Notes: generated from the sequence alone by a model not told the origin. Positions 3,305 through 64,000 are shown, counted from the first letter of the stretch. The stretch is DNA of 64,000 nucleotides from Gorillibacterium sp. sgz5001074 (GCF_051594765.1 NZ_JBPPGJ010000003.1:264226-328225); one strand, 5' to 3'. Translations and numbers: made by a program.

Positions 3305-3347
3305 GCGTGTAGCTCCCCTCTTTTATAGCCAATCTTGTTCTCTAGCG

Positions 3348-5838: not shown

Positions 5839-5856
5839 CCAGTTTACATTTTATGG

Positions 5857-5885
5857 TTGACTGACAACTCAATCAAAAATATAAT
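5857..5885 (+). promoter_or_regulatory. near-consensus sigma-A promoter (TTGACT, 17-nt spacer, TATAAT)
   Basis: TTGACT at 5857-5862, a 17-nt spacer, then TATAAT at 5880-5885, about 20 nt upstream of the TTG start at 5907. Confidence 0.6.
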
Positions 5886-5906
5886 GGTCTCAAGGAGCGT
5901 GATCCA

Positions 5907-7873: not shown

Positions 7874-7992
7874 GGTCCATCCCCCTACGACAATTCATTG
7901 AAATTGAATTAATGCTTCAATTCATTCAATTATACAAATAGTGTTGGGGCGATTACAATGAAAATCAAAGAACGTAAAGGAGTGGAGTTAGG

Positions 7993-12497: not shown

Positions 12498-12520
12498 ATG
12501 AACACCTTCCTGCAACCCTG

Positions 12521-13501
<981 letters not shown>

Positions 13502-13616
13502 GGTTTACCACACCTTCCCATCCAAGAATAGGGCCAAACCCACGCATATGTTTTTGGCTCCTATTCATCGTACAGCTTAAAGTACACTTTAAGGCAAGCG
13601 TTTTTTTATGGAGCCT

Positions 13617-30640: not shown

Positions 30641-30759
30641 TATAGTGTGATCCATAGCAATCATAGCTTGTGAAATATTCAGTTGTACCTAATTATAATC
30701 CTATAGGAGTGAACCTCCATGGTCATATCGTAATATTTTGTGACGGAATGTGGCCAGTA

Positions 30760-31443
30760 CTAAAGCATGTTGCTAATCTTTCTATTTCTTTCCAGCAGCT
30801 GCATACTGATCGTATCTATCAATTCAGCACTTTCAGCTTTTTCATTTTTCGTGACAAAGCCTTTGAGCAGTTGAATATTTTGGGCTATGACCTCCTCTAG
30901 TCCATACAGGGTTGGATGTGATTTCACCTGACTGCTTCTACATGTGTCATATAGTTTCTCGAGATTTTTCTTAAGCATGGCATCCGTTGTTTGTTCCATT
31001 AGCAGTCTCAACTCAGCGGAAGCATCCTTTATATAATTGGAATAGTACTTGCTTTCTTGTTCTTTATGAATTGCTTTTTCAGTAAAAATCAAGCTGGTCA
31101 TGTAAGCTAGGGCATATAGACCTGCGATTATCAATTGTGGTATGAACGAAGCGTTAAAAGATGCATTCTTAAAATAAATAAAAACAAGACCTATGAAGAA
31201 CGCACCAATAAAATATAAGAACGACAAATAAATAAGGGGATATCCGAACACCAAGGAACTTTTCACTTTAGGCATGGTTATCGTTGATAGAACAAACATG
31301 AGATAGGCAAAATGAATAAAACCGTAGGATACCCAAAACGCGGTAGTAAACTCCTTCATAATCAGAAAAATAACGGCATTGAAAACGATAACAAAAATTG
31401 AACTTAATAAAATCCAAAGAATGTTAATTTTTTTATTCATCAT
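30760..31443 (-). CDS. membrane protein, about 4 TM N-terminal plus C-terminal coiled-coil domain (low GC)
   Basis: Last gene of a low-GC (~35%) four-gene cluster. Start MMNKKINILW abuts the upstream gene. No family recognised. Confidence 0.55.
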   Translation of the reverse strand: MMNKKINILWILLSSIFVIVFNAVIFLIMKEFTTAFWVSYGFIHFAYLMFVLSTITMPKVKSSLVFGYPLIYLSFLYFIGAFFIGLVFIYFKNASFNASFIPQLIIAGLYALAYMTSLIFTEKAIHKEQESKYYSNYIKDASAELRLLMEQTTDAMLKKNLEKLYDTCRSSQVKSHPTLYGLEEVIAQNIQLLKGFVTKNEKAESAELIDTISMQLLERNRKISNML

Positions 31444-31451
31444 TAGCCGCC

Positions 31452-32609
31452 TCACATTCTTCTTGTTCCACATTCATTGCAGAACTTTGCCGTTTCGGGC
31501 ATTTCGGCTCCACAGTTTCCGCAGTATTTTTTTTCTTTAAGGAGTTTTGTGCCGCATTCATTGCAAAATTTGGCCCCCTGGACATTCTGAACCCCGCATG
31601 AAGGACACTCCGTTTGTTTAGCACCAGACTCTGCTTGTTCCGGTCGAGGCTGCTCGGGTTGGATCTGTTGATTCATCATGGGGGCAAACATTTGTGTTGC
31701 TACGTCCCCAAATATACCTCCCGCGGCTATTCCCATACCCAAGGCAGCTCCAGCTGCCGCGACTCCACCAGCCTCAGGATTATGTGCTAAATCCTTCAGA
31801 ATATCGACGGATTGTTGTCTACCCCAATCCTGTCCGAGCACACCCATAACAGCTTTATTGGCATATGCTTGTTCCAATCTTTCACGACTAGGGTCATTCT
31901 CGGGAATATCAATAGCACTGATATAAAAGTTAACCAGACGAACTCCATATTCGTCTAATATGCCATTCAATAGCGGCGTGAGAGATTCCGCTATCTTGGT
32001 CTTTTCCGTACAAACATCCAGAATTTCCCTTCCGGATTCCTTTATTACTCTAGGTATCTCATCCTTAATATATTGCATAAATGCATTGCGGAAGTACCCG
32101 TTAAGCTCCTCCTGGGTAAAATACTGAATATTATTGCCGATTAACTTAAGCAAAAACTTCTTGGAATCCGCAATCTGGATGGAGTACGAGCCTCTTGCTT
32201 GAATACTGGTTTGCAGCATGAATACAGGGTCTCTCATTTGAATCGGTGTATCTGTGCCCCAGAAGAGCTCTAGCTTATGTACTTTATTAATAAAATAAAC
32301 TTTACAGTTAAACGCACTAACTCCACCCGAAAAAGAGCTTATGAATTTACTGATAAAAGGGTAGTTATTCGTACCAAGGGTATACTTTCCGCCTTCGAAT
32401 GTTTGCTCGATTATGCCATCCTTAAAAAATAATGCTTCCTCTGATTCTGCAACAATAAGTTGGGAGCCCGTATTGAAGTCCTCACCAAGGAATTTCCAGG
32501 CGAGAACCTCACCTGGACCATCATTTTTTATAACACTGTATAATTGCACAGGTATACCTCCACTTTTTCCCAATATAGAATACAACAAAAAGAGCAGTTC
32601 ATGGGACAT
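31452..32609 (-). CDS. SPFH/Band-7-like protein with Gly-rich linker and double C-terminal zinc ribbon (COG4260, YdjI-like)
   Basis: N-terminal SPFH-like domain. C-terminus reads CPSCGVQN..CNECGTKL..CGNCGAEM..CNECGTRRM. An alternative GTG start near 32549 has the better RBS (GTGGAGGT). Confidence 0.65.
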   Translation of the reverse strand: MSHELLFLLYSILGKSGGIPVQLYSVIKNDGPGEVLAWKFLGEDFNTGSQLIVAESEEALFFKDGIIEQTFEGGKYTLGTNNYPFISKFISSFSGGVSAFNCKVYFINKVHKLELFWGTDTPIQMRDPVFMLQTSIQARGSYSIQIADSKKFLLKLIGNNIQYFTQEELNGYFRNAFMQYIKDEIPRVIKESGREILDVCTEKTKIAESLTPLLNGILDEYGVRLVNFYISAIDIPENDPSRERLEQAYANKAVMGVLGQDWGRQQSVDILKDLAHNPEAGGVAAAGAALGMGIAAGGIFGDVATQMFAPMMNQQIQPEQPRPEQAESGAKQTECPSCGVQNVQGAKFCNECGTKLLKEKKYCGNCGAEMPETAKFCNECGTRRM

Positions 32610-32663
32610 TCACTCGCCACAATGAATATTCTTTGAACTGCCCTTACTGCTATGTACTTTTAA

Positions 32664-33341
32664 CTAAGCACCTTTTTTCTCCCTAAGCAATTGCTTCATA
32701 CCTTGTATCGAGCGTTCAATCCCACCGATATCCGATACCGAACAAGAAATGGAGGTTCCGGCTACAGTCGTAAGCATGAAATGCTCAAGGTTAATGAATT
32801 CATCTTTTCCTTTCGTGTTTTTCATGGTTATTTTATCAGAGGAAGTGGATACAGCGACAACATCCTTATAGAAGTACTCATCTGTATTTTCATTTCTTTC
32901 ATTATCGACTAGTGAAAATCTATAGGTATAACAATATACTTGGCTTTCGCTAAAGAATAAAACGGCAACCTCGTAGTTAGAACTTCTAAACAGGCCATCC
33001 TTACCCTGTTTCCACAAGTACTCTCTAGCAATATTATCAAAGTATGGTCCATCAATAATAATGGGCTCAATTAATTGAACTTGCTCTTCGTCAATGCCAA
33101 TCTTGCTTAACCCATTCTTCACTGCATCATTAATTTCATTCTTGCAAATGGCATCTATTTCTGCATCAGTAGGCTTCCCTCTTACTTGAAAATAAATGTG
33201 GGCTATACCAGCAACTACTATTAATAACCCTGCTACTCTAAAGCCCACAAAAGTAAATAAACCAAAAAGAATTAAGATGATTCCTGGTTTTAATCTAGTT
33301 GTTTTAAAGTACCTTTTATTTCTTTTGTAATTCATTCCCAT
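32664..33341 (-). CDS. membrane-anchored protein (N-terminal TM hairpin), YdjH-like by position
   Basis: 225 aa with two hydrophobic helices at residues about 20-55 and a soluble C-terminal domain. Low GC. Confidence 0.5.
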   Translation of the reverse strand: MGMNYKRNKRYFKTTRLKPGIILILFGLFTFVGFRVAGLLIVVAGIAHIYFQVRGKPTDAEIDAICKNEINDAVKNGLSKIGIDEEQVQLIEPIIIDGPYFDNIAREYLWKQGKDGLFRSSNYEVAVLFFSESQVYCYTYRFSLVDNERNENTDEYFYKDVVAVSTSSDKITMKNTKGKDEFINLEHFMLTTVAGTSISCSVSDIGGIERSIQGMKQLLREKKGA

Positions 33342-33394
33342 TACCTCCGAGTTCGTTATATCCTATTATGGCAAAAACCGCGTGGCGGGCAGTT

Positions 33395-34036
33395 TTAGTT
33401 AACAATCAGATCAGCAGGTATCTCCACATTTAATAATTCGAATAAAATTCGAATATCCTCGTTCGTTACATGGTTCGTATATGCCGTACTAAGCTCATCC
33501 TTATAGCTTGGAGAAATTCGCAAGTACTTTCTTTCATAAAAGTCATACTTTAAATAGGCTGAGAAATAATTGTAGATGCCTCTATTCTCTATCATTAAAG
33601 CGGCATTTAAGTATTCCAACGCCTTATCAATCATAGCCTTAGGGGTCATAAAGGCCTTCTTGCCCTTTAATAAACCAACTGCTGCATAAAAATAGGTTTC
33701 GGAGTTATCGAAGTTATCCTGTATCGCCTTCTCAAAGCTTTCTACTGCCTTGTCATATAACTTTAATTTTAAATAACACATGCCCAAGGAGGATTGAATG
33801 GACGACTCCTCCGGGTGCTCCTTAAGAGCTTCATTATAGGATTGGACATACTTATTGGCATCCTGCTGCGACATATTATATACACTATTAAAACTCATAA
33901 TAATCACTTGTCTACCACAGTATTTACAAGTTTGTTCACTTGTTGAAGACGGTTCTCCACATCCAGGGCACCTTAGGTCAACAACTTTGTAAGCACACAT
34001 TAGGTAATCGATCCCCCACACCACATTTATAATCAC
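33395..34036 (-). CDS. zinc-ribbon (CPGCG..CKYCG) plus TPR-like repeat protein, YdjG-like by position
   Basis: Start is uncertain. A strong RBS (GAGGAGG) drives a 28-codon ORF in another frame (MEILVELSPSDYKCGVGDRLPNVCLQSC) that overlaps the start of this ORF. Confidence 0.5.
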   Translation of the reverse strand: MIINVVWGIDYLMCAYKVVDLRCPGCGEPSSTSEQTCKYCGRQVIIMSFNSVYNMSQQDANKYVQSYNEALKEHPEESSIQSSLGMCYLKLKLYDKAVESFEKAIQDNFDNSETYFYAAVGLLKGKKAFMTPKAMIDKALEYLNAALMIENRGIYNYFSAYLKYDFYERKYLRISPSYKDELSTAYTNHVTNEDIRILFELLNVEIPADLIVN

Positions 34037-34427
34037 TAGGGGATAATTCGACTAAAATTTCCATTTTCCTCCTCATAACGTTACATTTTTTACACTTTTT
34101 TAGTAATTGTAGTTGTAAAGACCTATATGACCCAGCAAGGGGATCATACGTAATGAATATTTCGAATCCGCCAAAAGCTCGAATCGTTTGGGAACCGGAA
34201 GCAATCGCTGCTTTCCCCGGCGCGGAGCGGCTCGTCACCTTTATCCCGGAGGAGCTGATCGAGACGGAGTTTGCCCCTACCCTATCGTGGAACTTCGCAA
34301 GCTATTCCCCGCACAACCCAGAGTAACCACTTAAAATGGACTTTACAGGTTATACAAAAGATGGTACTCTTCCCTTATAACCAGTAATACCGATTTAATC
34401 CGGTTATAATGTGGGAGGGTGATTGTG

Positions 34428-50595: not shown

Positions 50596-50939
50596 TGTGT
50601 ACTGTTAGCGAAGTTTAGAAATGCTTGTCGAATGTTTTGCGCTGTACGAGTCCGGAATGGTCGAGGAGGCAGGCGAGGCCGATGTTCGCGCTCAATTTGA
50701 CGCCAACTTATTGTTCCTCCAAATGGGCGTTTATTTTGATGAACTCAGTATAAACATAGAGGCATCATGGCCCATAAATAGTTTTCTTCCAGTAAAAAAG
50801 ATCTTGGATTTTATGCGTCAATAGGTTGAATAAGAGCACTTGGGGCATGAAATATTTGACAAATGGGTGTCATCATATATAATTTTCTCAGCCAAATAAA
50901 TAGCATTGCATTTTAATCGAGAGAAATGAGGATAGTGAA

Positions 50940-51311
50940 ATGATGATCGTTCGTGACCTTTTAACGGCACTTGTTGCCATCGAGCATGTATATATCTTGA
51001 TTTTGGAAATGTTCATGTGGACAACTCCGAGAGCGAGGAAGGCTTTCGGAACCGAAATGAAATTCGCGGAAGCGACTAAGGCGCTTGCCGCTAACCAGGG
51101 TCTGTATAACGGCTTCTTGGCGGCGGGGCTGTTCTGGGGGCTCATTCATCCCGATGCCGCAATGGGGTACCAGCTGCAATTGTTCTTCCTAGGCTGCGTC
51201 CTCGTAGCCGCCGTCTACGGAGGCGTGACGGCGAAACGGTCGATTCTGCTCGTCCAAGGGCTGCCGGCATTAACTGCAATGGTCGCCGTGCTCGTATCGC
51301 GCTTTCTTTAA
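50940..51311 (+). CDS. DUF1304-family membrane protein
   Basis: 123 aa, 4 TM. Followed by a terminator at 51334-51356. Confidence 0.6.
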   Translation: MMIVRDLLTALVAIEHVYILILEMFMWTTPRARKAFGTEMKFAEATKALAANQGLYNGFLAAGLFWGLIHPDAAMGYQLQLFFLGCVLVAAVYGGVTAKRSILLVQGLPALTAMVAVLVSRFL

Positions 51312-51514
51312 CATCAAGCTTCTCAAGGAAAGAGGGCCGTACGGATGGCCGTTTTTACATACAAAGGACCGTTTTAGCATGGGGCGCAACTTTTCCAGCC
51401 ATATACCTTCTAAAGGGGAGTTATCCGATTCTCACTTTTATTTGGTATACACGAAATCCCCATAAGAGCAATGCCGATAAACGATTTCATGAAGTATCCG
51501 ATTATGAATTTATT

Positions 51515-51943
51515 GTGTTGAAGGAACGTTTTGGAGACCTCGTTCTTCCCATGGCGCTCGACTTAACGGATGCTGAGCAGGTACGCCAGGTCGTTCAGCA
51601 GGCTCATGCCCATTTCGGCAAGCTGGACGTTGTCCTCAACAATGCCGAACCCGGTGCTTATGTGACCGAGTTTGGCGCTTCAGGTAAGCGAGTACCGGAA
51701 ATGGACGTCTATACCGCTGTACGGAAGCAGGTATTCACACGTCTATCAAACGAAAAATGCGGCAACGCTCAAGCGACTGCAGAAGCCGTTCTCAAGATCG
51801 TGGACGCAGCGGAACCCCCACTACGATTTGCGCTCGGCTCGGAAATCTTGCCTATGGCACGCGGCACCTATGCTGACCGTCTCGCCACCTGGGAAGCCTG
51901 GGAGTCTGTCTCGAATGCAGCGCAAGGCAGTCCTATGCAATAA
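51515..51943 (+). pseudogene. SDR-family oxidoreductase fragment (N-terminal Rossmann segment missing)
   Basis: Starts in mid-domain (..LPMALDLTDAEQVRQVVQQAHAHFGKLDVVLNNA..) with no TGxxxGIG upstream. Confidence 0.55.
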
Positions 51944-52011
51944 GCCATTGCAATTGGACTGGAGCAGATAACCAGCAAGGAACCTCTTCGACTTTTTCGA
52001 AGAGGTTCCTT

Positions 52012-52830
52012 TCAAAACCTTCTCAACCATTCCAGCATTCGATCTACAACTTCCTTATATCGTTGTCCGACAAGCAGGCCGGTGTGGGTGGTGTGCCTAA
52101 GTCCAGCATATTCCGCATGGAGCTGTTCCGCTGTCAACCTGCCTCGACGGTCATCATCATCGTCATTAACAGCTTTGACAACCAAGCTTGGGCAAGTGAC
52201 CAAGCTGCCATTTATGGAGATTCCCTCTCCATCCTCAAATGCCAAAAACGCATTGAATGCCTTCGCCGACTCCATGGCTAGATACTTTTTTTGAAATGCG
52301 ATGTCTTCCGCCGATTCGTCTAAGCTTGTGTGTTCTTCTCTTACTGGGGCGGGAATGATAGGCCCCGATGTGAACAGGACAATATTTTCGTACGGTACTG
52401 CTTCATGCACTTCCTTGCTTATGCTGGAATCAATCACAACCAGACCTGCCAGGGAGACGGTTTCGGCCAGCTTCTGACACAGGATTCCGCCCATGCTGAA
52501 TCCGATCAGGATCGGCGGAACGCCGCATTCAACGATTACCTCCCGAATGTCCTCCAAGTAATCCTCGAAAGAAATCGTTGTCATATCCAACATCCTGCTT
52601 CTGTAGTGACTTCTCATGTTCATGACATAGCATTTCCATCCTTCATTCACAAAGTGGGGGATGTATTTGCTCCACATCCAACTTCCTGTGTAGGCACCGT
52701 GTACAAACAACAGCGGCGTTCTAGCCGCTGCACTCGAGAAGTTATCGTCACCATATACTTCTAAGAATAAATCGTGTTCTCCAACGTACTTCTCTGTATG
52801 AGGGGGCAACCATTTCGTGTAATCCTTCAT
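52012..52830 (-). CDS. alpha/beta hydrolase
   Basis: GFSMGG nucleophile elbow. Confidence 0.75.
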   Translation of the reverse strand: MKDYTKWLPPHTEKYVGEHDLFLEVYGDDNFSSAAARTPLLFVHGAYTGSWMWSKYIPHFVNEGWKCYVMNMRSHYRSRMLDMTTISFEDYLEDIREVIVECGVPPILIGFSMGGILCQKLAETVSLAGLVVIDSSISKEVHEAVPYENIVLFTSGPIIPAPVREEHTSLDESAEDIAFQKKYLAMESAKAFNAFLAFEDGEGISINGSLVTCPSLVVKAVNDDDDDRRGRLTAEQLHAEYAGLRHTTHTGLLVGQRYKEVVDRMLEWLRRF

Positions 52831-53361: not shown

Positions 53362-53385
53362 TCAATAGCACACTCTGTCTTCTAA

Positions 53386-53471
53386 GGAACTTGCCGTTAC
53401 TTGTGATACGGATCGCCGCGCTGTCTATAACGGCAAGTTTTAGAGCCATCCTTCCGGGACGGCTCTTTTTT
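53386..53471. repeat. rlmH 3-prime-end copy 3 (GATCCGTATCACAAGTAA, minus strand) within a 12-bp inverted repeat (AACTTGCCGTTA..TAACGGCAAGTT), followed by a terminator-like hairpin
   Basis: Direct repeat of the C-terminal codons and stop of rlmH at 63080-63103. A region of about 45 nt is about 85% identical to the copy at 60751-60800. Confidence 0.7.
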
Positions 53472-53492
53472 GTCTCTCTTATCTAAACTCTG

Positions 53493-54038
53493 TCAGTGCT
53501 TACAGAGTTTTTCATACACCTCATAAACTGCGAGCACCTGCTCCACAAAGCCTTTCTCGGCACTTTCAATCCATTTGATAAAAGCCATGTAAAAAATTTC
53601 AACCGCAAATCGTGCGGCAAGCTCTGACAGCTCGCGATCAAATTTGACAGACAATGCGTTTGTGACAGACCCCATTAGCGCCTGGCTTTTCAGCAGCTCA
53701 CGCTCCTGCAAATCAGGGTTGCTTTGAATAATTTGATTCCGCGCCAGCACCCTCTCCCGCTCGCCATCAAAAAAACTAAAAACCGAGGCAAAGCCATCAA
53801 CGGCAAGCTTCAGCGGATTTTGCTCGACGTCGATATGGTCCGTGATAAAAGCCGCGACTCGATGCCCCATCTCATTTCTCGTGTCAAAAAGCACGTCAGA
53901 TTTGTCCTTGAATTGCCGGAAAAAGGTTCTCTCCGTCACACCTACAAGGCTTGCAATCTCTTGCACCGTCGTATTTTCATAGCCTTTTTCCATAAATAAT
54001 TTCGTGGCCGCCGCCTGCAGTTTCTCTTTACTATTCAT
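53493..54038 (-). CDS. TetR/AcrR family transcriptional regulator
   Basis: TetR HTH (AATKLFMEKGYENTTVQEIASLVGVTERTFFRQF). Confidence 0.8.
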   Translation of the reverse strand: MNSKEKLQAAATKLFMEKGYENTTVQEIASLVGVTERTFFRQFKDKSDVLFDTRNEMGHRVAAFITDHIDVEQNPLKLAVDGFASVFSFFDGERERVLARNQIIQSNPDLQERELLKSQALMGSVTNALSVKFDRELSELAARFAVEIFYMAFIKWIESAEKGFVEQVLAVYEVYEKLCKH

Positions 54039-54186
54039 TTTACCATTCCTATTTTTATAATTTTTTACATTTTTACGAAAAGGTCAGTAACTGACATTTT
54101 ATCTTGACAACAGTATCCAGCAAGCGCATAATGATCTCAAATGTCAGTCACTGACATAACTTTATCAAAAAGAAGGAGAGAACACA

Positions 54187-55074
54187 ATGAAAATCACCGT
54201 TCTCGGCTCACTCGGCAATATCAATCGTAACTACCTTCCACGCCTCATCGCAGACGGTCACGATGTCACCGTCATCACAAGCTCCAAAGATCGGGTCTCC
54301 GACATCGAAGCTCTCGGCGCCAAGGCTGCTGTCGGCTCAAATCGTGATGTCGACTTCCTCACCAAGGCTTTCACAGGCAGCGACGTCGTTTACCTCATGA
54401 TTTCTGGCATCCATTTTGCCACTGGCACGGATATGTGGCAGACCGCCATCGAGCTTTCTGAAAATTACAAGACCGCCGTTCTAAACTCAGGCGTGAAAAA
54501 CGTCATCAACCTCAGCTCAGTGGGCGCTGACAACCCCAACGCCGGCATCCTTTACAGCTATCATTTTGCAGAAGACGCGCTCAACTCGCTCGAAGGCGTG
54601 AACGTTGTTCATATCCGCCCTGTCGGCTTTTACAGTAATCTTTTTGCCGACATGCAAAGCCTTAAAGCCCAGCGAATCCTCTTCAGTCCCATTTCAGCCG
54701 ACATCCCGCAAGGGTGGGTCAGCCCCGTTGATATCGCGGACGTCGCTTACGCTCTGATTTCTCACACCCCAGCGGGAAAAAGCACGAAATTCGTAGTAAG
54801 CGATTGGGCCACATGCAACGACTGGCTAAATGCTCTTGCTGAAAATGATATCGAAGCCAAGTTCCAAAAAATCCCCGTCGAAGCTCTCGCTGAAAATATG
54901 AAGAAAATCGGCTTCCATGAAAACACCGCCAACGGCTTCGCCCAATTGTACCGCGCGGGTGAAAACGCCGACGAATTCTACGCCAGCCTCCGTGCCACCG
55001 ACTACTACCTCGGCAAAGTCAAGATTGGAGACTTTGCAAAGGTTTTTGCGGATGTATATAAAAAATCAGTTTAA
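54187..55074 (+). CDS. NmrA-like NAD(P)-binding protein
   Basis: MKITVLGSLGNINRNYLPRLIADGHDVTVI Rossmann motif. Confidence 0.7.
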   Translation: MKITVLGSLGNINRNYLPRLIADGHDVTVITSSKDRVSDIEALGAKAAVGSNRDVDFLTKAFTGSDVVYLMISGIHFATGTDMWQTAIELSENYKTAVLNSGVKNVINLSSVGADNPNAGILYSYHFAEDALNSLEGVNVVHIRPVGFYSNLFADMQSLKAQRILFSPISADIPQGWVSPVDIADVAYALISHTPAGKSTKFVVSDWATCNDWLNALAENDIEAKFQKIPVEALAENMKKIGFHENTANGFAQLYRAGENADEFYASLRATDYYLGKVKIGDFAKVFADVYKKSV

Positions 55075-55154
55075 ACCATTTTGGATTACAAACCGTTCTT
55101 ATTACCTCCACAAAAACTAACAGAGCACCCGAATAGGTGCCCTTCCACGATTCA

Positions 55155-55730
55155 TTAGCTATGCGATTCGATTAATATCCTAGCAGCCTGTTCGATGTCA
55201 GCCGGCGGGGCATCGGGGCCGACCAACCGCGCGATCATACAGAATCCTTCCATCAAGACGAAGAGCTGTCGCGACAGTCCTTCGGGGGATCGCAAATTCG
55301 CTTGCCTGCATATGTCTTCCAAACGACGGATGACAGATTGCTTGTGTCGGCTTACTTCCTGATTCACCATATGGTCGGGGAACGGATACTCCACGGCGAC
55401 CGCTTGATACAGACAGAAGCTCGATTGCGGCGACTTCGAATGTTGGCCTGCAATCGCTTTAAACAATGCAAGAATCTGCTCCCGCGATTCGGCCTTACCT
55501 ACCGTCTTATCAAACCATTCCCAATACATCTCGCTGGAACGTTCCAGAATGGCAACAATTAAATGATCCTTGGACGGAAAGTGTTTGTATAAGGTCATCT
55601 TCGTAACACCAGCTTCGGCAGCGATGCGGTCGACACCGATTGCATGGAAGCCGTTAGTGAAAAACAACTGACTCCCGGTCAACAGCAATTGCTCCCTAGT
55701 GGCTGATTTCCGGTCATTCATAACACTCAT
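55155..55730 (-). CDS. TetR/AcrR family transcriptional regulator
   Basis: Start MSVMNDRKSATREQLL with an AGAGGTGA RBS. The upstream track extension is non-coding. Confidence 0.75.
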   Translation of the reverse strand: MSVMNDRKSATREQLLLTGSQLFFTNGFHAIGVDRIAAEAGVTKMTLYKHFPSKDHLIVAILERSSEMYWEWFDKTVGKAESREQILALFKAIAGQHSKSPQSSFCLYQAVAVEYPFPDHMVNQEVSRHKQSVIRRLEDICRQANLRSPEGLSRQLFVLMEGFCMIARLVGPDAPPADIEQAARILIESHS

Positions 55731-55747
55731 TTTAAAATCACCTCTAT

Positions 55748-55819
55748 ACTTGACAGTATACAGATCGGTATGTATACTGTCAATTAAAACCAGCGGTATA
55801 CAGACTTGTATGTATACTC
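55748..55819. promoter_or_regulatory. divergent TetR-controlled promoter: perfect 12-bp inverted repeat TTGACAGTATAC-(10)-GTATACTGTCAA overlapping a consensus sigma-A promoter, plus a second GTATAC-containing half-palindrome
   Basis: TTGACA at 55750-55755, a 17-nt spacer, then TATACT at 55773-55778. The inverted-repeat arms are 55750-55761 and 55772-55783. Confidence 0.6.
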
Positions 55820-55836
55820 TAAAAGGAGGAGAAGAA

Positions 55837-56484
55837 ATGAAGATCGGATTCATCGGTTCGGGCAACGTCGGGCAATCGTTGGGGCGCGTATTGGTTCAAC
55901 AGGGGTATGATGTGAAGCTTGGCGCGAGGGACTTGAGTAAGTTGAGGATCTGGCAAGAATCGTTCGGGGCTAATGAAAGGGCGAGCGTTGGCACCTACCG
56001 GGAAGCAGCCGAACATGGCGAGATTATCTTCAACGTTACGCCTGGCGCCGTATCGCTCGAAGCCTTGCAGTCGGTAGGTCGGGTAGCGCTTGCCGGCAAA
56101 ATTCTTATCGATGTTGCGCTTCCACTCGTATTCGCGAATGGCGAGCTGGGATTGTCAGTCCCCCACAACGACTCGCTCGGAGAACAGATCCAACGCGCCT
56201 TCCCAGATACGAAAGTCGTCAAAACGCTTAATACCGTAACGTCTGCCCTTATGATCCATCCGTACCAGCTTGCAGAGGGCCAGCACGATATGTTTATCGG
56301 GGGTAATGATGTAGACGCAAAAAAACAGGTCTCAGAGTACCTGCGCAAATGGTTCGGTTGGAAGAACATTCTGGATCTAGGCGACATCTCATCTGCACGC
56401 GCAACAGAGGGCCTTCTCCTGCTTACCTCCAGAATATATGGCGCCCTCGGTCATGCGAACTTTAATCTGAAAATCATTCACTAA
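55837..56484 (+). CDS. NADP-binding oxidoreductase (F420-dependent NADP reductase / ProC-like Rossmann family)
   Basis: MKIGFIGSGNVGQSLG start after an AAAAGGAGGAG RBS. Confidence 0.65.
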   Translation: MKIGFIGSGNVGQSLGRVLVQQGYDVKLGARDLSKLRIWQESFGANERASVGTYREAAEHGEIIFNVTPGAVSLEALQSVGRVALAGKILIDVALPLVFANGELGLSVPHNDSLGEQIQRAFPDTKVVKTLNTVTSALMIHPYQLAEGQHDMFIGGNDVDAKKQVSEYLRKWFGWKNILDLGDISSARATEGLLLLTSRIYGALGHANFNLKIIH

Positions 56485-56491
56485 AACAGAC

Positions 56492-57952
56492 ATGACTAAC
56501 AGGAAGGACTCACCCTCCTCATCGGTCCGCCATCTCGCCGTGCCGATGGCCGCGATCATTGTCGGGATGTTTATCGTCTATTTGGATCAGACGGTTTTGA
56601 ATGTGATTTTGCCAAATATAATTACATCACTTCATAGCACATACCCTGCAGCGCAATGGACGATTACCGGATACTCGCTCGCTATGGCGTCCCTCATACC
56701 CATTGCGGGCTGGCTCTCCGACCGGTTCGGCGCCAAGCCGGTCCTGCTCATGGCGATTGCTTGGTTTGGGGCGGCTTCTGCTCTTTGCGCGCTGTCTTCC
56801 ACGATGGAACAACTGATCTTGTTCCGCTCCGTTCAGGGCATTAGCGGAGGTCTGGTGACGCCAGTAGGGCTTGCGATGATCTATCGTCTGAGCCCCTCAG
56901 GGCAGACCGGCAAGGTCATGGCGATGATCAGCATTCCGGTTCTGCTAGCCCCCGCTTTCGGTCCAATTCTAGCCGGTTACCTTGCCGACCATTTATCCTG
57001 GCACTGGGTGTTCCTGATCAACGTTCCGCTCTGTCTCATCGGCCTCCTTCACGGTATTCGCTATCTTCCGCGGATTACCAGCGGGCCCACAGCAAGATTG
57101 GACCCTTATGGATTATTCCTCGCCCCCGTTGCAGTTGTTGGGCTTTGTTACGGGCTTAGCGCAGGCACCAGTAGTTGGCATTCCACACAGACAATCGGCA
57201 GTTTTTTGACGGGATTCATCAGTCTCATTCTATTGATCGTCGCTGAATTACGGCAACCGGAACCGTTGTTGGAACTTCGCGTCTACCGTTCCCGTGGTTT
57301 TGCCAAAGGCAGCTTTATACTGGCAGCGGGGCAAATCGCTGTTTTCGGAAGCCTTTATTTGTTGCCGCAATGGCTGCAGAACGTAAGAGGTAGCGGCGCA
57401 TTCGAGTCCGGACTGCTCATGCTACCGTATGCGGTATCGTCGGGTATTGTCTTACAATGGTCGGGCAAATGGTTCGACAGATTCGGAGTTCGGAGATTAG
57501 CGATAGCCGGAATGTGCGGCCTGGGGATTGACGGATTTTTGCTGGCTCGCCTCGAACCGAATAGCAGTACGCTTTGGATCGTTCTGCCGATCGTCTTGCT
57601 TGGCGCGAGCTCGGGTCTATGCATGATGCCACTGAGTACACATCTCATGCTAATGGCCCCACGGGAGCTGGTCAGCCGAGTATCCTCGCTAGCCGGCGCC
57701 TCCCAACAGGTCATTGTGTCTTTAACCATCGCCGGGCTGACAACCTTATTGACTGGATATATGGGGTCGCCTGTGAGTAGACCTCCCCCTCTCGTTCAAG
57801 ACTGGCTGCCAGCGTTTCGTATAACTTTTGCAACAACTTCAATTACTGCCCTTCTCGGCGCAACGATCGTAATATTCATAAAAAACGATTATAGTTTACG
57901 AAATAGGAATGGTGATTTGATTTCTAAAGAAAAAAAGAGAAGCCCGGATTAA
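56492..57952 (+). CDS. MFS transporter, DHA2 (EmrB/QacA-like, 14 TM) drug:H+ antiporter family
   Basis: 486 aa with motif A-like regions (LDQTVLNVILPNI.., GWLSDRFGAKPVLL). Confidence 0.75.
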   Translation: MTNRKDSPSSSVRHLAVPMAAIIVGMFIVYLDQTVLNVILPNIITSLHSTYPAAQWTITGYSLAMASLIPIAGWLSDRFGAKPVLLMAIAWFGAASALCALSSTMEQLILFRSVQGISGGLVTPVGLAMIYRLSPSGQTGKVMAMISIPVLLAPAFGPILAGYLADHLSWHWVFLINVPLCLIGLLHGIRYLPRITSGPTARLDPYGLFLAPVAVVGLCYGLSAGTSSWHSTQTIGSFLTGFISLILLIVAELRQPEPLLELRVYRSRGFAKGSFILAAGQIAVFGSLYLLPQWLQNVRGSGAFESGLLMLPYAVSSGIVLQWSGKWFDRFGVRRLAIAGMCGLGIDGFLLARLEPNSSTLWIVLPIVLLGASSGLCMMPLSTHLMLMAPRELVSRVSSLAGASQQVIVSLTIAGLTTLLTGYMGSPVSRPPPLVQDWLPAFRITFATTSITALLGATIVIFIKNDYSLRNRNGDLISKEKKRSPD

Positions 57953-58213
57953 TCAAGGACCGGCCGTTCTTCGCACAGAAGTCCGCCCTAACCACATGGG
58001 ATGGGTGGCCGACATTGATCGCTTGCGGGTTATGTGAATACAAAAAGAGAGGACCTTCCCGGTACGGTTCTCCGTATCACTCTAACGGCGAAAAATAAGC
58101 CATTGGATTTCGGTTCTCCTAGCTATCGGTAATGAAAGTTTTAAGGCCATCCTTAATCTCCCGCATCTATGAAGAAAAGACAGGGCGGTCGCCCCTGTCT
58201 TTCTTTACGTTAA

Positions 58214-59002
58214 CTAAATTTTCCCATTATATATTTTAACTGTAATTGGAGCGACAATCAGAACAAGGAGTATGCCGATAAAGATGGTCATTGATGCGCT
58301 TGAAGTGAACTCTCCATGATTGGCTAAATCTTTAAAAGCCGTGACCAAATAAGTAATAGGATTATGTTCAGCTACGCTCCGCAAAAAATGGGGCAACGTA
58401 TCAATAGGCACGAAGGCGTTGGATAGGAACGACATCATCATGGTGACCATTGTCGAAATACTAGAGATCGTTGCTGCGGATTTGGATACCAGACCAATCA
58501 ATGCAAACACCCAACTGATGGCGCATGCGCCGAATATGGCCAAAAGCGAAGCGACGATCAACCACCCAAACCCGGCTTCCGGACGCCATCCAAGAATGTA
58601 GCCCGTACCGATCGAGAAAAAAGCCGCCGCGACATATCGTAAAATATCTGATGTCACTAAACCAGCCAGTGGAGCAATCCGGACAATGGGTAATGATTTA
58701 AACCGATCAAAAACGCCAGTATCCAAATCCTCCCGTAACTGCGTGCCCGTTGCCGCTGACGACATGACCAGTGTTTGAATGAGAATTCCCGGCACGATGA
58801 TTGGCAAGTATCCTTGTACACCTCCAGCAATCGCACCTCCGAATAGATATGAAAAGACGATCATGAAGAAAATAGGGATTACGGTTACATCGATCAATTT
58901 ATCGGGATTATGTTTGATTTTCAGGATATTTCTTTTTGCCATTACAACAATATCATACAGAGCGCTCTTTAAGTTGTTTTGTTTGCTTATCACAGATTCC
59001 AT
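58214..59002 (-). CDS. ABC-2 type transporter permease (DrrB-like)
   Basis: 262 aa, 6 TM. Confidence 0.7.
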   Translation of the reverse strand: MESVISKQNNLKSALYDIVVMAKRNILKIKHNPDKLIDVTVIPIFFMIVFSYLFGGAIAGGVQGYLPIIVPGILIQTLVMSSAATGTQLREDLDTGVFDRFKSLPIVRIAPLAGLVTSDILRYVAAAFFSIGTGYILGWRPEAGFGWLIVASLLAIFGACAISWVFALIGLVSKSAATISSISTMVTMMMSFLSNAFVPIDTLPHFLRSVAEHNPITYLVTAFKDLANHGEFTSSASMTIFIGILLVLIVAPITVKIYNGKI

Positions 59003-59017
59003 GTTTATCTCCCCTAA

Positions 59018-59947
59018 TTATTTAGTTAGTTCCAAAAACACCTCATCAAGCGTTGGTTTTCTAACTGAAAACTCTTTGATTTCTATATCATGCTGAGTTA
59101 AATCTACTAGTAATCTGGTCATCACTTTCGTGTCTGCCAGCTTAACGGTCAATTTGGTTCCTTCGGGTGAAATCATGGCCTCCTGAGCGATTTCCGCCTT
59201 GATTAGTCCTTTGGCTCTTTCGGCATCCCTCATATGCTCCAGAGTAATTTCAAAATGGGTATCGCTTAACAAAGACTTCAATTCATTCGGCGTTCCCTGA
59301 GAAATGATTCTTCCATGATTAATTATCGCTAGTCGATCTGCTAGTTGATCCGCTTCCTCCAAATACTGAGTTGTCAGCAAGATCGTTGCCCCGTCGCTTG
59401 CCAAGTTGCGGATCACTTCCCACATCTCTCCTCGTGTGCGTGGATCTAAGCCCGTTGTCGGTTCATCAAGAAAAATGAGTGGGGGCTTCACGATTAAACT
59501 CACCGATAAATCCAATCGTCTACGCATCCCGCCCGAAAATTCACGAATCGGTCGATCCTTTGCCTCGGTTAATGAAAACTGATTGAGAAGTTCAAGAGCC
59601 CTCGCTTTGGATTGACTCGCTGATAAACCATTCAATTGCCCAAAGAGCTTCAAGTTTTCCATCGCGGTCAATTCCTCATCAACGGTTGCATATTGGCCCG
59701 TCAAGCCAATCAAGCTTCGAACCTTTCGAGCGTCTTTGGTGACGTCTTTGCCAAAAATCATGGCTTTGCCTTTTGACACTTTAGTAATCGTTGCAAGCAT
59801 TCGCAAGAAAGTTGTCTTTCCTGCACCATTCGGACCCAGAATACCGAAAATCTCTCCTTTCTTAATATCCAAAGAAATACCATCGACTGCTCGCTTGTTA
59901 GGAAATTCTTTAACGAGCTCTTTAGTTGAAACGGCTAGCTCTGTCAT
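59018..59947 (-). CDS. ABC transporter ATP-binding protein (DrrA-like)
   Basis: Walker A (GPNGAGKTT) and signature (FSGGMRRRL). Start at MTELAVS. Confidence 0.8.
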   Translation of the reverse strand: MTELAVSTKELVKEFPNKRAVDGISLDIKKGEIFGILGPNGAGKTTFLRMLATITKVSKGKAMIFGKDVTKDARKVRSLIGLTGQYATVDEELTAMENLKLFGQLNGLSASQSKARALELLNQFSLTEAKDRPIREFSGGMRRRLDLSVSLIVKPPLIFLDEPTTGLDPRTRGEMWEVIRNLASDGATILLTTQYLEEADQLADRLAIINHGRIISQGTPNELKSLLSDTHFEITLEHMRDAERAKGLIKAEIAQEAMISPEGTKLTVKLADTKVMTRLLVDLTQHDIEIKEFSVRKPTLDEVFLELTK

Positions 59948-59971
59948 TCTGTTTTCTCCTTTGCGCATTTA

Positions 59972-60012
59972 ATAAGGATACCTTACTAATAAAATAAGGT
60001 ACCCTTACTAAA
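59972..60012. promoter_or_regulatory. two direct copies of a palindromic box (TAAGGATACCTTACTA / TAAGGTACCCTTACTA); putative MarR operator
   Basis: Each copy contains TAAGG..CCTTA inverted half-sites. Located 25 nt upstream of the ABC ATPase start and 80 nt upstream of marR. Confidence 0.5.
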
Positions 60013-60091
60013 ATGTCAACCACATAATTTGAATTACTTCGGTGACCTGATAAAATAGAGAGGTACGGAGAACAAATAAGGGGAAATTATT

Positions 60092-60553
60092 GTGGATGAA
60101 AAACAATTAAACGTCGATATAACGACTAACTTCATGAAATATAATGATTTACTTACGGCGTTCTTAAAAGAAAACATACTTAAAGGCAGCAGCGTGTTTA
60201 CCTCTCTAAATCGAGGGCAAGGGAAAATATTGAGCATCCTTCATCAGACACCAAGTATTTCCCAAAAGGAATTAGTCAATCAATTGGATATGCGCCCGCA
60301 ATCTGCTTCTGAAATGATTAAAAAGCTAGAAAAAAAGGGATTCATCGAGCGGTATAAATCTGAAGAGGATCAACGCGTGATGATGATTACGCTAACTAAA
60401 GCCGGCAAAGTCGTTTTAAATCAAGCCGGAGACTTTCAGCCTGTATTTTTAAATGTTCTAACGATGGATGAAAAACAACAATTTAATCGAATACTCGAAA
60501 AACTTGTAGCCGAAATTGAACCCGAAGTCGCCAAATCTCGAAACAAGCAATAG
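60092..60553 (+). CDS. MarR family transcriptional regulator (low GC)
   Basis: Winged HTH (SISQKELVNQLDMRPQSASEMIKKLEKKGFI). Confidence 0.8.
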   Translation: MDEKQLNVDITTNFMKYNDLLTAFLKENILKGSSVFTSLNRGQGKILSILHQTPSISQKELVNQLDMRPQSASEMIKKLEKKGFIERYKSEEDQRVMMITLTKAGKVVLNQAGDFQPVFLNVLTMDEKQQFNRILEKLVAEIEPEVAKSRNKQ

Positions 60554-60750
60554 GGGCGTTATATCTAGATGCCGAAGGGGCGGGTTACCAGCTTCACGCC
60601 TGAATTTCCGGAGAAGGTCGGTTGCAAAAATCAAAGGGAGCCGTCCCAAATTCGATGATTTGGGAACGGCTCCCTTTACGGTTTGCCTCACTTTTCGCTT
60701 GCTATTCATTTTTTTGGGACATTCCAACGTATTGCAGCGAGCAAATTCGC

Positions 60751-60800
60751 CCTACTTATGATACGGTTCTCCGCGTTATCTGTAACGGCAAGTTTTAGGG
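60751..60800. repeat. rlmH 3-prime-end copy 2 (GAACCGTATCATAAGTAG identical to the native gene end; encodes RGEPYHK-stop) plus flanking element-end homology (..GTAACGGCAAGTTTTAGGGCC)
   Basis: 20 of 20 nt identical to 63081-63100. The flank is about 85% identical to 53415-53447. Confidence 0.7.
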
Positions 60801-60961
60801 CCAGTTTTGCAGGATGGAGAATTTCCGGTGTAAATCAATTAGTTTTTTTCCGAAGCTCTTCTCCCAAACAGCTCGATGCTTCTTCATCAACTCCATAAGA
60901 TATAAATCATGGACGTTTACTTCTGTAACCCTCCCTTGGAGTTAAATACTATCGCAGATAA

Positions 60962-61012
60962 AAAAAAGAATGCCGTGCATTTCCTGCACAACATTACGGC
61001 ATTCTCCCCAAT
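60962..61012 (-). terminator. rho-independent terminator of the helicase gene
   Basis: 10-bp stem (AGAATGCCGT/ACGGCATTCT) followed by T8 on the minus strand. Confidence 0.65.
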
Positions 61013-61075
61013 CGGTATGTTTACAGCTCGGCCAACGGCGAAGGTTTACTGCGCCAATGGTATGCAGCTAGCATT

Positions 61076-62524
61076 CTATCTCTTGTTCGCCGGCTGTACC
61101 TTCAGTAATTTACCCTTAACTGTGGTCTCCCGCATGGTGTTAAGCACCAGCCGGCCTTTGCCGTTCAGAATATCGACGTACGAAGCATTGTCCTCTATGG
61201 TGATGATGCCAATGTCATCTGCCGTTACACCTTCGATCTTCGCAATCGTTCCCACAAAGTCAACGGCCCTGATCTTCTTCTTCTTGCCCCCGTTAAAATA
61301 CAGCTTCATAATCTCATTACCCATGACGCTGTTCTTATCGGTCTTGGGAGTGGGCCGAGCCTTCATCTTCTTCTCGAAAGCATACTGGGCCTGCTCCGCC
61401 TCTTCCTTCGAAGGAGCACTCTTCCTTGGAATTTCATGCCCTATATAGCCCTCAATACTGATAACAAACTTCTCCTCATTCGGAGTGGCGAAGGAGATTG
61501 CCTTCCCCGTCTTCCCCGCGCGGCCGGTTCGGCCGGTTCGATGCACATAGCTCTCATTCTCTAACGGAAGATCATAATTGAAGACATGAGTGATATTATC
61601 GATGTCAATGCCCCTCGCGGCTACATCCGTTGCGATCAGATAACGGAACTCGCCCCTCTTGAAGGCATTCATCACCTCGTTCCGGTTGTCCTGCTCCATC
61701 CCGCCGTGGATGCCGTCACAGCTGTACCCATGCTTGTTCAACTCCTTGAACACCACCTCTACCCGGACTTGCGTACGGCAGAAGATGATGCAGCTGTCCG
61801 GGTTCTCAACCGTCGTTACATCCCGGAGCAGCTTGAGCTTATGCTCGTCCTTCACGGTATACAAGGCATGTTCAATTTGACTCTTCGTTCTTCCCGCGGT
61901 CTCGATCTCAATATCCATTGGCTGCTTCATATACCGGTGGCATAAGCTTTCTACATCCTTGGGCAAGGTTGCAGAGAACAGCAGGGTCATCCGGTGCTTG
62001 GGCAGCTCCCGAATAATCTTCTCCACCTGCTCAATAAAGCCCATGCTGAGCATCTCATCCGCTTCATCAATAACCAGGATCTTCACTTGCTCCAAGTCGA
62101 TCGTTTGCTTCTCGATGTGGTCCATCACCCGTCCCGGCGTACCGACGACAACATGATTTTTATACGTCAACTGATCTTTCTGCCTCTCGAAAGGCTGCTT
62201 CCCATAAATCGCGATTGCCTTGATCCGCTTGTACTTCCCAATATTCATGATATCCTGCTTGACTTGGTCCGCCAGCTCCCGGGTCGGGGTTAAGATCAAG
62301 GCCTGAGGCCGGTTCTCTTCCCAGTCCACCATTTCACAGACCGGAATCCCGTAAGCAGCCGTCTTGCCGCTACCCGTATGGGATTTGACCGCCATATCCC
62401 TATTCTCCAGCGCGTGAGGGATGACTTTACTTTGAACCTCTGTCGGTTGCTCGTAGCCCAAGCTCTCCAACGCCCGGATTATGGGGTCACTTAATTTATA
62501 GCTCGTAAAGCCTCGTTCACTCAT
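61076..62524 (-). CDS. DEAD-box ATP-dependent RNA helicase with C-terminal DbpA-type RNA-binding domain
   Basis: Q motif, Walker A ([12 protein letters not shown]), DEAD (VIDEADEM), SAT, and [20 protein letters not shown]. Confidence 0.85.
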
Positions 62525-62654
62525 ATAAGAACTCCTTCGTAATATCCTAGGTTATGTCGTCCACCCCTGCACTGCGTTTGTTTGCAATCATTTAGAATCA
62601 GGAAGATGACTCCTCATGATACGATAATTCCGATCGATAATCTAGCTTACTCTA

Positions 62655-63108
62655 ATGATCATCATCCCAGCTAATGAACACGCAGCAGATCAAGAGCATC
62701 ACGGTTGGTTGGACAGCTCTCACGGATTTTTCCGCCGTTTGGTCATCGTTCCGTTTCGTCGGGTGTTCAAGGGAGTGGAGGCCACAAAATGCTGCTGGAG
62801 AAGCTTTTGGAAGAACTGCCGGGCATCTTCAACTTTGCGATTGAAGGGCTTCGCCGCTTGAGAGAGCGAGACTACATCTTCTCCGAGTCCAAGGCAATCG
62901 AACAAGCGATCAACAGCTACAAGTCAGAGCAAAACCCGGTCATTTCATTCGTTGCCGACTTCGTCGAGAAGGAAATGAAAGCGACAGGGTTTGGACAAAC
63001 GAACTGTTCGACCACTTTCAAACTTGGTACAGACAGCAAGGCGAAACGGACTGCTGCGCGTTTTCACAAAAACATGCCCCTACTTATGATACGGTTCCCC
63101 CCGGTTGA
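62655..63108 (+). pseudogene. remnant of a phage/plasmid P4-family primase-helicase (C-terminal D5/primase-C region), N-terminally truncated, at least 2 frameshifts
   Basis: Frame a reads ..FRRLVIVPFRRVF. Frame b reads LLEKLLEELPGIFNFAIEGLRRLRERDYIFSESKAIEQAINSYKSEQNPVISFVADFVE. Frame c reads ELFDHFQTWYRQQGE. Together these match the conserved C-terminal pattern of P4-type primases. It ends exactly at the rlmH att core. Confidence 0.55.
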
Positions 63109-63559
63109 TCTTAAACGCCCGGTACACCTGCTCCACCAGGATCAGCCGCATGAGCTGATGCGGGAAGGTCATGCGCCCGAAGCAGAGCTTGGCGTCGGCG
63201 CGCTTGAGCACGGACGGGGCCAGGCCATTGGAGCCGCCGATGACGAAGGCCACGCTGGAGCGGCCGTACGTGCCGAGGCGGTCCAGCTGGGACGCCAGCT
63301 CCTCGGACGTCCACATGGCCCCGTCCAGCGCCAGCGCGATGACGTAAGCGTCCGGCTTCAGCTGGGCCAGGATCCGCTCGCCCTCCTTGGCCTTCACCTG
63401 CTCCTCCTCCGCCGCGCTCATGGTCTCGGGAGCCTTCTCATCCGGGACTTCGTTCAGCTGCACCTTCGCATAAGGCCCCAGCCGCTTCACATATTCGGCA
63501 ATGCCGTCCAACAGGTACTTCTCCTTCAGCTTACCGACCGCTACGATCTGGATATGCAT
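63080..63559 (-). CDS. rlmH: 23S rRNA (pseudouridine1915-N3)-methyltransferase RlmH
   Basis: The 159-aa SPOUT-family protein [82 protein letters not shown]. The track ORF start at 63691 is an upstream junk extension. Confidence 0.85.
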
Positions 63560-63626
63560 CGATTGCCGCTCCCTTGTCTTCTCCTTATCGTCTATCCTAT
63601 CATCATCGGCCCCCTCCGGCGGAGGA

Positions 63627-64000
63627 TTAGGCCGACAGCTTCTTGCCTTCAACCGGCGTCCTGCTGCCCCGGAACAAGGAGCGAACGGCACTCCACACCG
63701 CCTGATACAGCACAGACAGATATAGCGACGCCAACAGGCTGAAGAAGAAGGCCAGCCCGGTGAACAGGATGTAATTCTTCGGGCCGCCCATGGGCTTCAT
63801 GGAGTACTTGTACAGCGTCAGGAATGCCGGATGCAGCAGGTAGACGCCGAAGGAATGGCGGCTCACCTTTTGGACCCGGGCATAGAAGGGGCTTGTCCGC
63901 GCGGAGAGCGCCTGTCCCCACCGGAGCAGGAACAGACTCAGGAAGAACACATTCCCCAGCGTAGCCACCTCGAACCACGTATTCTCGAAGAAGACATGGC
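63627..64000 (-). CDS. membrane acyltransferase-family protein, C-terminal part (start beyond right edge)
   Basis: The reading frame stays open to position 64000. Hydrophobic C-terminal helices ([23 protein letters not shown]). The family call is tentative. Confidence 0.4.

Follow-up and report, generated by a model that had tools for sequence, protein, structure and literature searches.

A frameshifted replication-helicase fragment beside rlmH in Gorillibacterium sp. sgz5001074, very probably the remains of a decayed SCC-like integrative element

Next to the 3' end of rlmH in Gorillibacterium sp. sgz5001074 lies a short piece of DNA whose translation, broken over several reading frames, recalls the replication helicases of mobile elements. 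From which gene it came, what kind of element carried that gene, and how both were lost are the questions raised by this locus. They were addressed in the window, that is, the whole stretch of 64,000 nucleotides analyzed here (positions counted from its first letter), and in related loci of other genomes. Taken together, the comparisons make it very probable that the piece descends from the replication-helicase gene of an SCC-like integrative element and persists as a dead internal fragment with deletion decay.

Profile searches and alignments confirmed 62675-63052 (plus strand) as a pseudogene fragment that derives from an SF3 helicase gene of the D5_N/'primase_Cterm' group (P4/D5, Cch2/PriRep5-type). 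The original prediction had recognized a frameshifted P4/D5-family remnant by three motifs, and translation of the window recovered them (RRLVIVPF, MLLEKLLEELPGIFNFAIEGLRRLRERDY, and ELFDHFQTWYRQQGE), each in a different forward frame. The joined, frame-corrected peptide matched PHROG 864 (phrog_864, 'DNA primase') at E=2.6e-25 and the NCBIfam model TIGR01613 ('phage/plasmid primase, P4 family') at E=1.7e-21, covering positions 187-297 of its 304; the score of 76 bits lies under the full-protein cutoff of that model (108.7 bits) because the remnant is a fragment. The prediction depended on a significant profile match in at least one frame segment, and the middle segment, searched alone against NCBIfam and PHROGs, provided it (9.4e-9 and 4.1e-11). 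The first segment alone reached 0.007, and the third alone had no match among the profile models. Pfam returned nothing significant for single segments and only a sub-threshold Pox_D5 match (0.0057) for the joined peptide. At the DNA level, the intact gene of Paenibacillus sp. SYP-B3998 (locus L002) aligns with 62710-63052 over 345 nt at 83.8% identity and with 62677-62702 at 96%.

Once the frameshifts had been corrected in silico, alignment with the intact 664-aa protein of Paenibacillus sp. YN15 (locus L005) showed which parts survive, namely, residues 336-346 and 379-496 (Table 1). The remnant had been taken for a C-terminal region lacking some 500 residues; it is instead an internal piece, with about 335 residues missing at the N terminus and about 168 at the C terminus. 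Its presumed start at 62655 is a spurious ATG, and homology begins at 62675-62677 in a fourth frame segment (NTQQIKSITVG), which at the nucleotide level is 96-100% identical over 26-30 nt to L001, L002, L003, and L005. This segment is parted from the next by a clean 94-nt deletion at 62708/62709 that takes out residues 347-378, including the SF3 motif C (LLFAMNALP). Walker A (GSNGKS, residues ~281-286) and the Walker B region precede residue 336 and hence fall outside the remnant, which in terms of the alignment with PriRep5 corresponds to the distal part of the helicase module. Four frame segments are needed to read it, no ATPase core (Walker A, Walker B, and motif C) is present in any one frame, and the start codon is absent. 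With these motifs and the start codon gone, the remnant is incapable of encoding an active protein.

Table 1. Features of the rlmH-proximal region of the window and layout of the reference intact element in locus L005
Feature	Position	Strand	Description
Outermost att junction in the window	53385..53442	+	Right arm, core, and left arm in series
Cargo genes	within 53401-60756		Two TetR regulators, NmrA-like protein, F420-type oxidoreductase, MFS pump, ABC-2 transporter pair, MarR regulator
Second att core copy	60752..60772	+	CTACTTATGATACGGTTCTCC; left boundary of the innermost 2.3-kb segment
Left terminal arm, innermost element	60770..60817	+	TCCGCGTTATCTGTAACGGCAAGTTTTA plus degenerate hairpin
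dbpA-type DEAD-box RNA helicase gene	61076..62524	-	Intact, 482 aa; DEAD, Helicase_C, and DbpA domains
Helicase remnant, segment A	62675..62708	+	NTQQIKSITVG; residues 336-346 of the L005 protein; 5' truncation point just upstream
Helicase remnant, segment B	62709..62783	+	LDSSHGFFRRLVIVPFRRVFKGVEA; residues 379-403
Helicase remnant, segment C	62784..62966	+	KMLLEKLLEELPGIFNFAIEGLRRLRERDY...NPVISFVADFVE; residues ~405-465; entered via a 1-nt deletion near 62783
Helicase remnant, segment D	62967..63052	+	...SDRVWTNELFDHFQTWYRQQGETD; residues ~467-496; entered via a 1-nt deletion near 62967; ends at the large-deletion junction
Retained right terminal arm	63053..63083	+	GCTGCGCGTTTTCACAAAAACATGCCCCTAC; homologous to the right ends of intact elements
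Third att core	63080..63100	+	rlmH stop codon and last six codons; CTACTTATGATACGGTTC on the plus strand
rlmH, chromosomal target	63080-63559	-	Intact, 159 aa; SPOUT_MTase 1.9e-59, full length
L005 (Paenibacillus sp. YN15), left part			Core, Fic-domain gene, several hypothetical ORFs without a family, EcsC-like gene
L005, right part			664-aa helicase, 116-aa ORF, 565-aa large serine recombinase, right arm, core/rlmH

The two 1-nt frameshifts could be sequencing errors, single-base indels being a common error of assemblies. It might be argued from this that they, or programmed shifts, conceal a working small protein, for instance, a regulatory arginine-finger/WH fragment or the product of a 345-aa ORF with a TTG start (62705-63742), the more so as a long mechanical ORF spans the region and dN/dS is still low. 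Such a protein is hardly credible. Even with both 1-nt shifts repaired, the product lacks Walker A/B, motif C, a start with upstream context, and the C-terminal 168 residues, and neither the 94-nt deletion nor one of several kilobases is explicable as a base-calling error. The 345-aa ORF itself runs antisense through rlmH and has no family match beyond the helicase piece. As for dN/dS, values of 0.09-0.17 between the remnant and intact genes, against 0.07-0.08 among intact genes (110 codons), are those to be expected from a comparison of a recent pseudogene with distant relatives; the slight elevation, not decisive at 110 codons, suggests that inactivation was fairly recent relative to the divergence of the elements. 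For annotation, 62675-63052 should be marked as a pseudogene and the long ORF across the region as spurious.

The nature of the parent element was sought through its intact relatives. A word-indexed protein search with the reconstructed peptide produced a single match, itself a fragment (P0001 in L001, a Logan assembly), and a scan of genome contigs with two-sequence alignment yielded 24 loci. The best seven of these, L002-L008, share 50-64% amino acid identity and belong to Paenibacillus, Brevibacillus, and one unclassified Bacilli MAG. The closest intact homologues reach 62-64% amino acid identity overall, 82-84% over indel-free blocks, and up to 84% at the nucleotide level. In L002, L003, L005, and L006, the core TTRTGRTACGGTTC occurs on either side of the helicase gene, with about 9 kb from one copy to the other, and in L005 and L004, the right-hand core is the end of rlmH itself. 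The module running from the helicase to the recombinase is conserved across L002-L008 and recurs at lower identity in loci from Caryophanon and Peribacillus. The 565-aa recombinase of L005 has Resolvase, Recombinase, and Zn_ribbon_recom domains. The best NCBIfam models for the recombinase of these relatives are CcrB (3.9e-111) and CcrC (6e-97); both scores are far under the equivalog cutoffs (372 bits, with 900 required for CcrB), which makes the enzyme Ccr-like and not a Ccr orthologue. The view that a once-autonomous SCC-like element sat at the rlmH attachment site thus gained support, the closest intact homologues residing in recombinase-bearing elements of ~9 kb bounded by the rlmH core.

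The original name, primase-helicase, held for its second half only. In Pfam, the L005 protein contains D5_N (2.1e-13) and DUF5906 (1.6e-20) and nothing else; it scores 244 bits (1.3e-72) against TIGR01613, and its residues 200-496 align to residues 438-735 of PriRep5 of SaPI5 (PDB 7OLA; E=1.5e-21). Only ~185 residues stand ahead of the aligned D5_N/helicase region, and the first 200 gave no Pfam or PHROG match of any kind; a primase domain is not detectable in the intact relatives. Consequently, 'helicase' is the safer name for the gene, and 'primase' is nominal.

Phage-inducible islands had also been named as carriers of such genes. The protein family is indeed common to phages and SaPIs, as phrog_864 and the PriRep5 structure illustrate, so the remnant might derive from the primase-helicase of a prophage or a PICI/SaPI-type island instead of an SCC-like element. 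We regard this origin as very unlikely. The best phage and plasmid matches stay at 30-39% amino acid identity, far from the values quoted above for the rlmH-flanked elements with serine recombinases, and it is the latter that the arms flanking the remnant match. Moreover, no phage, packaging-interference, or tyrosine-integrase genes occur nearby. Of the features that define PICIs and SaPIs (a tyrosine integrase, a phage-responsive repressor, and packaging or interference genes), none was found near the remnant or in the intact relatives, whose recombinase is of the serine type.

Other parts of the element family are conserved as well. Near the left end of the L005 element (5130-6199), two adjacent ORFs of 197 and 168 aa have homologues in L002, L003, L007, and L008, and the 116-aa ORF between helicase and recombinase is conserved across the family. 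None of the three matched Pfam, NCBIfam, or PHROG models; they are candidates for accessory factors of replication or excision. The family, with a single Ccr-like recombinase, an SF3 helicase without a recognizable primase partner, and these conserved ORFs, could be a previously undescribed variant of the SCC-like replication module. An independently decayed copy was observed in L001 (6242-6699 and 9956-10465), where recombinase fragments and a 177-aa helicase fragment lie beside a Transposase_20 (IS110-type) gene, with a left-end att copy about 5 kb away.

How the remnant relates to such an element in the window depends on the attachment sites. The rlmH gene, the chromosomal target, shares 85.5% identity with its counterpart in Paenibacillus sp. 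YN15, and the reverse complement of the core at 63080-63100 is GAACCGTATCATAAGTAG, which encodes ..EPYHK followed by the stop codon. Copies of this 21-nt core start at 53397 (with three mismatches), 60752, and 63080, three where 0.01 would be expected by chance, and all are in direct orientation; the 14-nt universal core within them starts at 53401, 60756, and 63084. In the related elements, the conserved right end reads ...CTGCTGCGnGAT-TTTCC-AAAAAACTTGCCGTTAC before the core, and the conserved left end reads TCCGCGCTGTCTGTAACGGCAAGTTTT after the core, followed by a GGCCATCC...GGATGGCC hairpin. The motifs CTTGCCGTTAC and GTAACGGCAAG are mutual inverted copies. Terminal inverted repeats around the crossover region are what is expected of an attP used by a serine recombinase. 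With up to three mismatches allowed, the window contains four copies of the 16-nt arm motif AAAAACTTGCCGTTAC (0.56 by chance), each at an att site, and the copies at left and right ends are inverted relative to each other, as expected. The search for further att copies or arms in the window found none beyond the three sites; a gapped long-arm pattern had no match, the spacing being variable.

The outermost junction combines a right-arm motif (AGGAACTTGCCGTTAC), the 14-nt core at 53401-53414 (TTGTGATACGGATC), and an inverted left-arm copy (ATAACGGCAAGTTTTA), and is an attP-like joint between two further tandem units. This complete joint implies a further element to the left of 53401, although upstream of that position the window contains no more core or arm. 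Between 53401 and 60756, the unit of ~7.4 kb holds cargo only. At the innermost element, a left arm like that at 60770-60817 is conserved at the left ends in L001-L008, and the right arm at 63053-63083 bears the inverted-repeat motif CATGCCCCTAC against the consensus CTTGCCGTTAC; with 3 mismatches in 16 positions, its competence for recombination is uncertain. Judged by its ends, 60756-63083 is a 2.3-kb unit with both termini and both cores retained; dbpA and the helicase fragment are all that it contains. Of the three or more att-bounded segments that make up the tandem array, it stands nearest to rlmH.

The dbpA gene deserves separate consideration, as the original prediction had expected the 5' region of the helicase gene directly upstream of the remnant. 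The gene found there is a DbpA-type DEAD-box RNA helicase on the opposite strand, unrelated to the remnant and located inside the att-bounded segment. A protein of Gorillibacterium sp. sgz5001074 matches the window protein at 100% identity (an exact-sequence lookup gave no record), and orthologues at 95, 86, and 82% identity are encoded elsewhere in their genomes, none of them at rlmH. In locus L026, where the protein is 95% identical and the gene 92% identical in nucleotides, the neighbors of dbpA match window positions 1-1123, 7008-8733, and 12151-13607, distant parts of the window, which indicates that the region has been scrambled. The gene looks like an ordinary chromosomal one, widely conserved in Paenibacillaceae with orthologues of 70-95% identity, and it was either captured by the element or placed between the arms by rearrangement. 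Both its wide conservation and the local scrambling seen from L026 would also suit a reading of the 2.3-kb segment as native chromosome, the dbpA region with scattered element debris, in which case the core at 60756 would belong only to the neighboring 7.4-kb cargo element. That reading is nevertheless improbable, for the 60756 core is followed on its right by the complete left-arm signature and a hairpin remnant, as is typical of left ends, and a matching right arm lies at 63053-63083, with the result that two termini in the correct orientation bracket dbpA and the remnant.

The position of the breaks indicates how the element would have been reduced. Protein homology ends at 63052, 27 nt short of the 21-nt repeat and 31 nt short of the 14-nt core, in good agreement with the predicted stop about 35 nt before the core. 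At 63051/63052, the alignment with L002 breaks off within the helicase gene and picks up again at the far right end of that element (63051-63110 against L002 14575-14636; 80.6% over 62 nt), and the microhomology at the junction is the dinucleotide CT, 2 nt only. The piece missing at this point spans 10473 to ~13262 in L005 (2.8 kb) and comprises the last 168 helicase codons, the 116-aa ORF, and the recombinase; the equivalent gap in L002 is 4.1 kb. These deletion sizes are estimates from relatives, the nearest intact element found being 84% identical in nucleotides. On the other side, the 150 nt between the remnant and the start codon of the divergent dbpA gave no match in the related elements, and the 5' break could be due to a chromosomal rearrangement on a larger scale instead of a simple deletion within the element.

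The original prediction had attributed the erosion to recombination between att copies, and the window does offer three directly oriented cores. Tandem arrays are substrates for att recombination in staphylococcal SCC composites (PMC10061031). Recombinase-mediated exchange of this kind, however, removes whole att-to-att units and leaves no partial genes, whereas the breakpoints observed here (~62675, 62708/9, and 63052) all lie outside the cores, the 3' one joined to its partner with the 2-nt CT microhomology alone. The element's own right arm fills the 31 nt from the 3' break to the core; loss by illegitimate internal deletion is therefore indicated, and we consider att-by-att exchange a highly improbable cause.

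A sequence of events of the following kind would account for the decayed SCC-like element. In the intact relatives, a Ccr-like large serine recombinase would integrate the circular element within the last codons of rlmH; once it is excised, its replication would fall to the helicase, loading at the element's origin. We infer both steps from gene content and from the published biology of SCC and SaPI elements (Mir-Sanchis 2016 and Bebel 2020, as cited in PMC9371898 and PMC10061031). For the window copy, the alignments show the damage: everything upstream of codon 336 has been lost, where the dbpA region now stands; 94 nt with helicase motif C have gone as well, in addition to the two 1-nt frameshifts; and an internal deletion of about 2.8-4 kb has brought codon 496 directly against the final ~31 nt of the right end, taking with it the C-terminal domain of the helicase, the small ORF, and the recombinase.

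Searches for the lost genes were negative: tblastn with the L005 recombinase had no match in the whole 64-kb window, no Resolvase or Recombinase domain was present in ORFs between 42 and 63 kb, and, the remnant apart, the other genes of the intact element left no trace anywhere in the 64 kb. Since the window has no recombinase and the gene of the relatives scores below the equivalog cutoff, the 2.3-kb segment is best classed as a pseudo-SCC-like recombinase-less remnant and not as SCC. Unit 60756-63083 is non-autonomous and could perhaps, at most, be moved by a cognate recombinase acting in trans. A bolder combination, in which this unit is a still-mobilizable mini-cassette, with the housekeeping-type dbpA as its sole intact gene, and the ~9-kb family is an undescribed replication-module variant, is tentative and, in our estimate, rather unlikely. 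If it is true, the SCC-like elements of Paenibacillaceae would capture core genes and pass them between genomes by means of a recombinase supplied in trans.

Several observations concern the regulatory signals and cargo of the region. A sigma-70-like match (TTCACA, 16 nt, TATGAT; 10/12 positions, a consensus match only) at 63063-63090 on the plus strand spans the right arm and core and is directed antisense into rlmH. The promoter scan of the region gave 5 matches against a shuffle mean of 2.3 (sd 1.6), within about two standard deviations. Promoter and terminator counts were near chance, with a terminator-like hairpin of dbpA (60969-60995) as the only one that looked meaningful, and a scan of 60000-64000 with Rfam at E up to 0.1 found no RNA family.

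Regarding cargo, L005 has a second att-bounded segment outside its intact element (20-4321) with a different DEAD-box helicase, 39% identical to the window DbpA; RNA helicase genes may be recurrent cargo of rlmH arrays. Additionally, window positions 50605-52012, with a DUF1304 gene and a truncated short-chain dehydrogenase, are ~93% identical to L008 2133-3799, whose counterpart is a 1.9-kb segment between two att cores in the 'Bacilli bacterium' MAG. The similarity suggests that cargo of rlmH arrays may be exchanged between distant genomes; a search for att remnants, including degenerate ones, around the block in the window found none. Farther upstream, the GC content falls to 0.37-0.41 at 30700-34100, against about 0.5 in the surrounding sequence. 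This block, which may be a separately acquired module, has genes for an SPFH/Band-7 protein with double zinc ribbons and for a TPR/zinc-ribbon protein, as well as two ORFs without a Pfam match.

Compared with known systems, the island resembles SCC and SCCmec. It occupies the same target, the last codons of rlmH/orfX, and its repeat GAACCGTATCATAAGTAG, which comes from the same part of rlmH as the staphylococcal DR_L (GAAGCGTATCATAAGTGA; PMC7029136, Table 3), agrees with the latter at 15 of 18 bases. Further likenesses are termini with imperfect inverted repeats, a tandem arrangement in which the repeat recurs several times, and, in the intact relatives, a large serine recombinase nearest to CcrB/CcrC together with a Cch2/PriRep5-type helicase, and the absence of any recombinase from the window copy recalls pseudo-SCC. 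In contrast, the host is a member of the Paenibacillaceae (Gorillibacterium) and not Staphylococcus or a macrococcal relative, the intact relatives have a single recombinase gene that is only Ccr-like, their accessory genes encode Fic, EcsC-like, and hypothetical proteins, and no mec, CcPol, or MP genes were detected. SCC elements are recognized by ccr genes, insertion at the att/ISS site in orfX-rlmH, and flanking direct repeats (PMC7029136). The window has the insertion at the 3' end of rlmH and the flanking direct repeats and lacks a ccr gene. With no ccr in the window, only a Ccr-like recombinase in the relatives, and a host among the Paenibacillaceae, the element matches the SCC/pseudo-SCC design and is not SCC in the strict sense.

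PriRep5 of SaPI5 (PMC9371898) has a long N-terminal primase domain, whereas the Paenibacillus proteins have no detectable one, and, unlike the self-loading SF3 helicases PriRep5 and Cch2, the window fragment has lost all of its catalytic motifs.

The closest published description is that of Bebel et al. 2023 (PMC10061031), who reported elements downstream of rlmH in Bacillus, Paenibacillus pinistramenti, Listeria, and others. Repeats of the final ~12 bp of rlmH delimit these elements, and some, those of Paenibacillus pinistramenti included, form tandem composites. They carry large serine recombinases and COG3378 (D5_N/'primase C_term') helicases, which, as the authors stress, are often mislabelled as primases. 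The family found here has the same design, with the difference that their elements were chosen for an A-family polymerase-SSB primase pair beside the helicase, of which none was detected in L005, and that the window copy is a deletion derivative and not an intact element. Consequently, SCC-like rlmH islands with such helicases were already published for Bacillota, and the present case adds another, extending the known spread of rlmH elements by loci from Gorillibacterium, Paenibacillus, and Brevibacillus. It provides a base-resolved example of the decay of an rlmH-targeting SCC-like element outside staphylococci, in which internal illegitimate deletions appear to have stripped the recombinase and replication genes and spared the recombination ends. 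Furthermore, the compact ~9-kb family could serve as a system for studying Ccr-like recombinases and their att sites in spore-formers. The outcome at this locus, a recombinase-less cassette in a tandem array, parallels the pseudo-SCC elements and composite islands of staphylococci.
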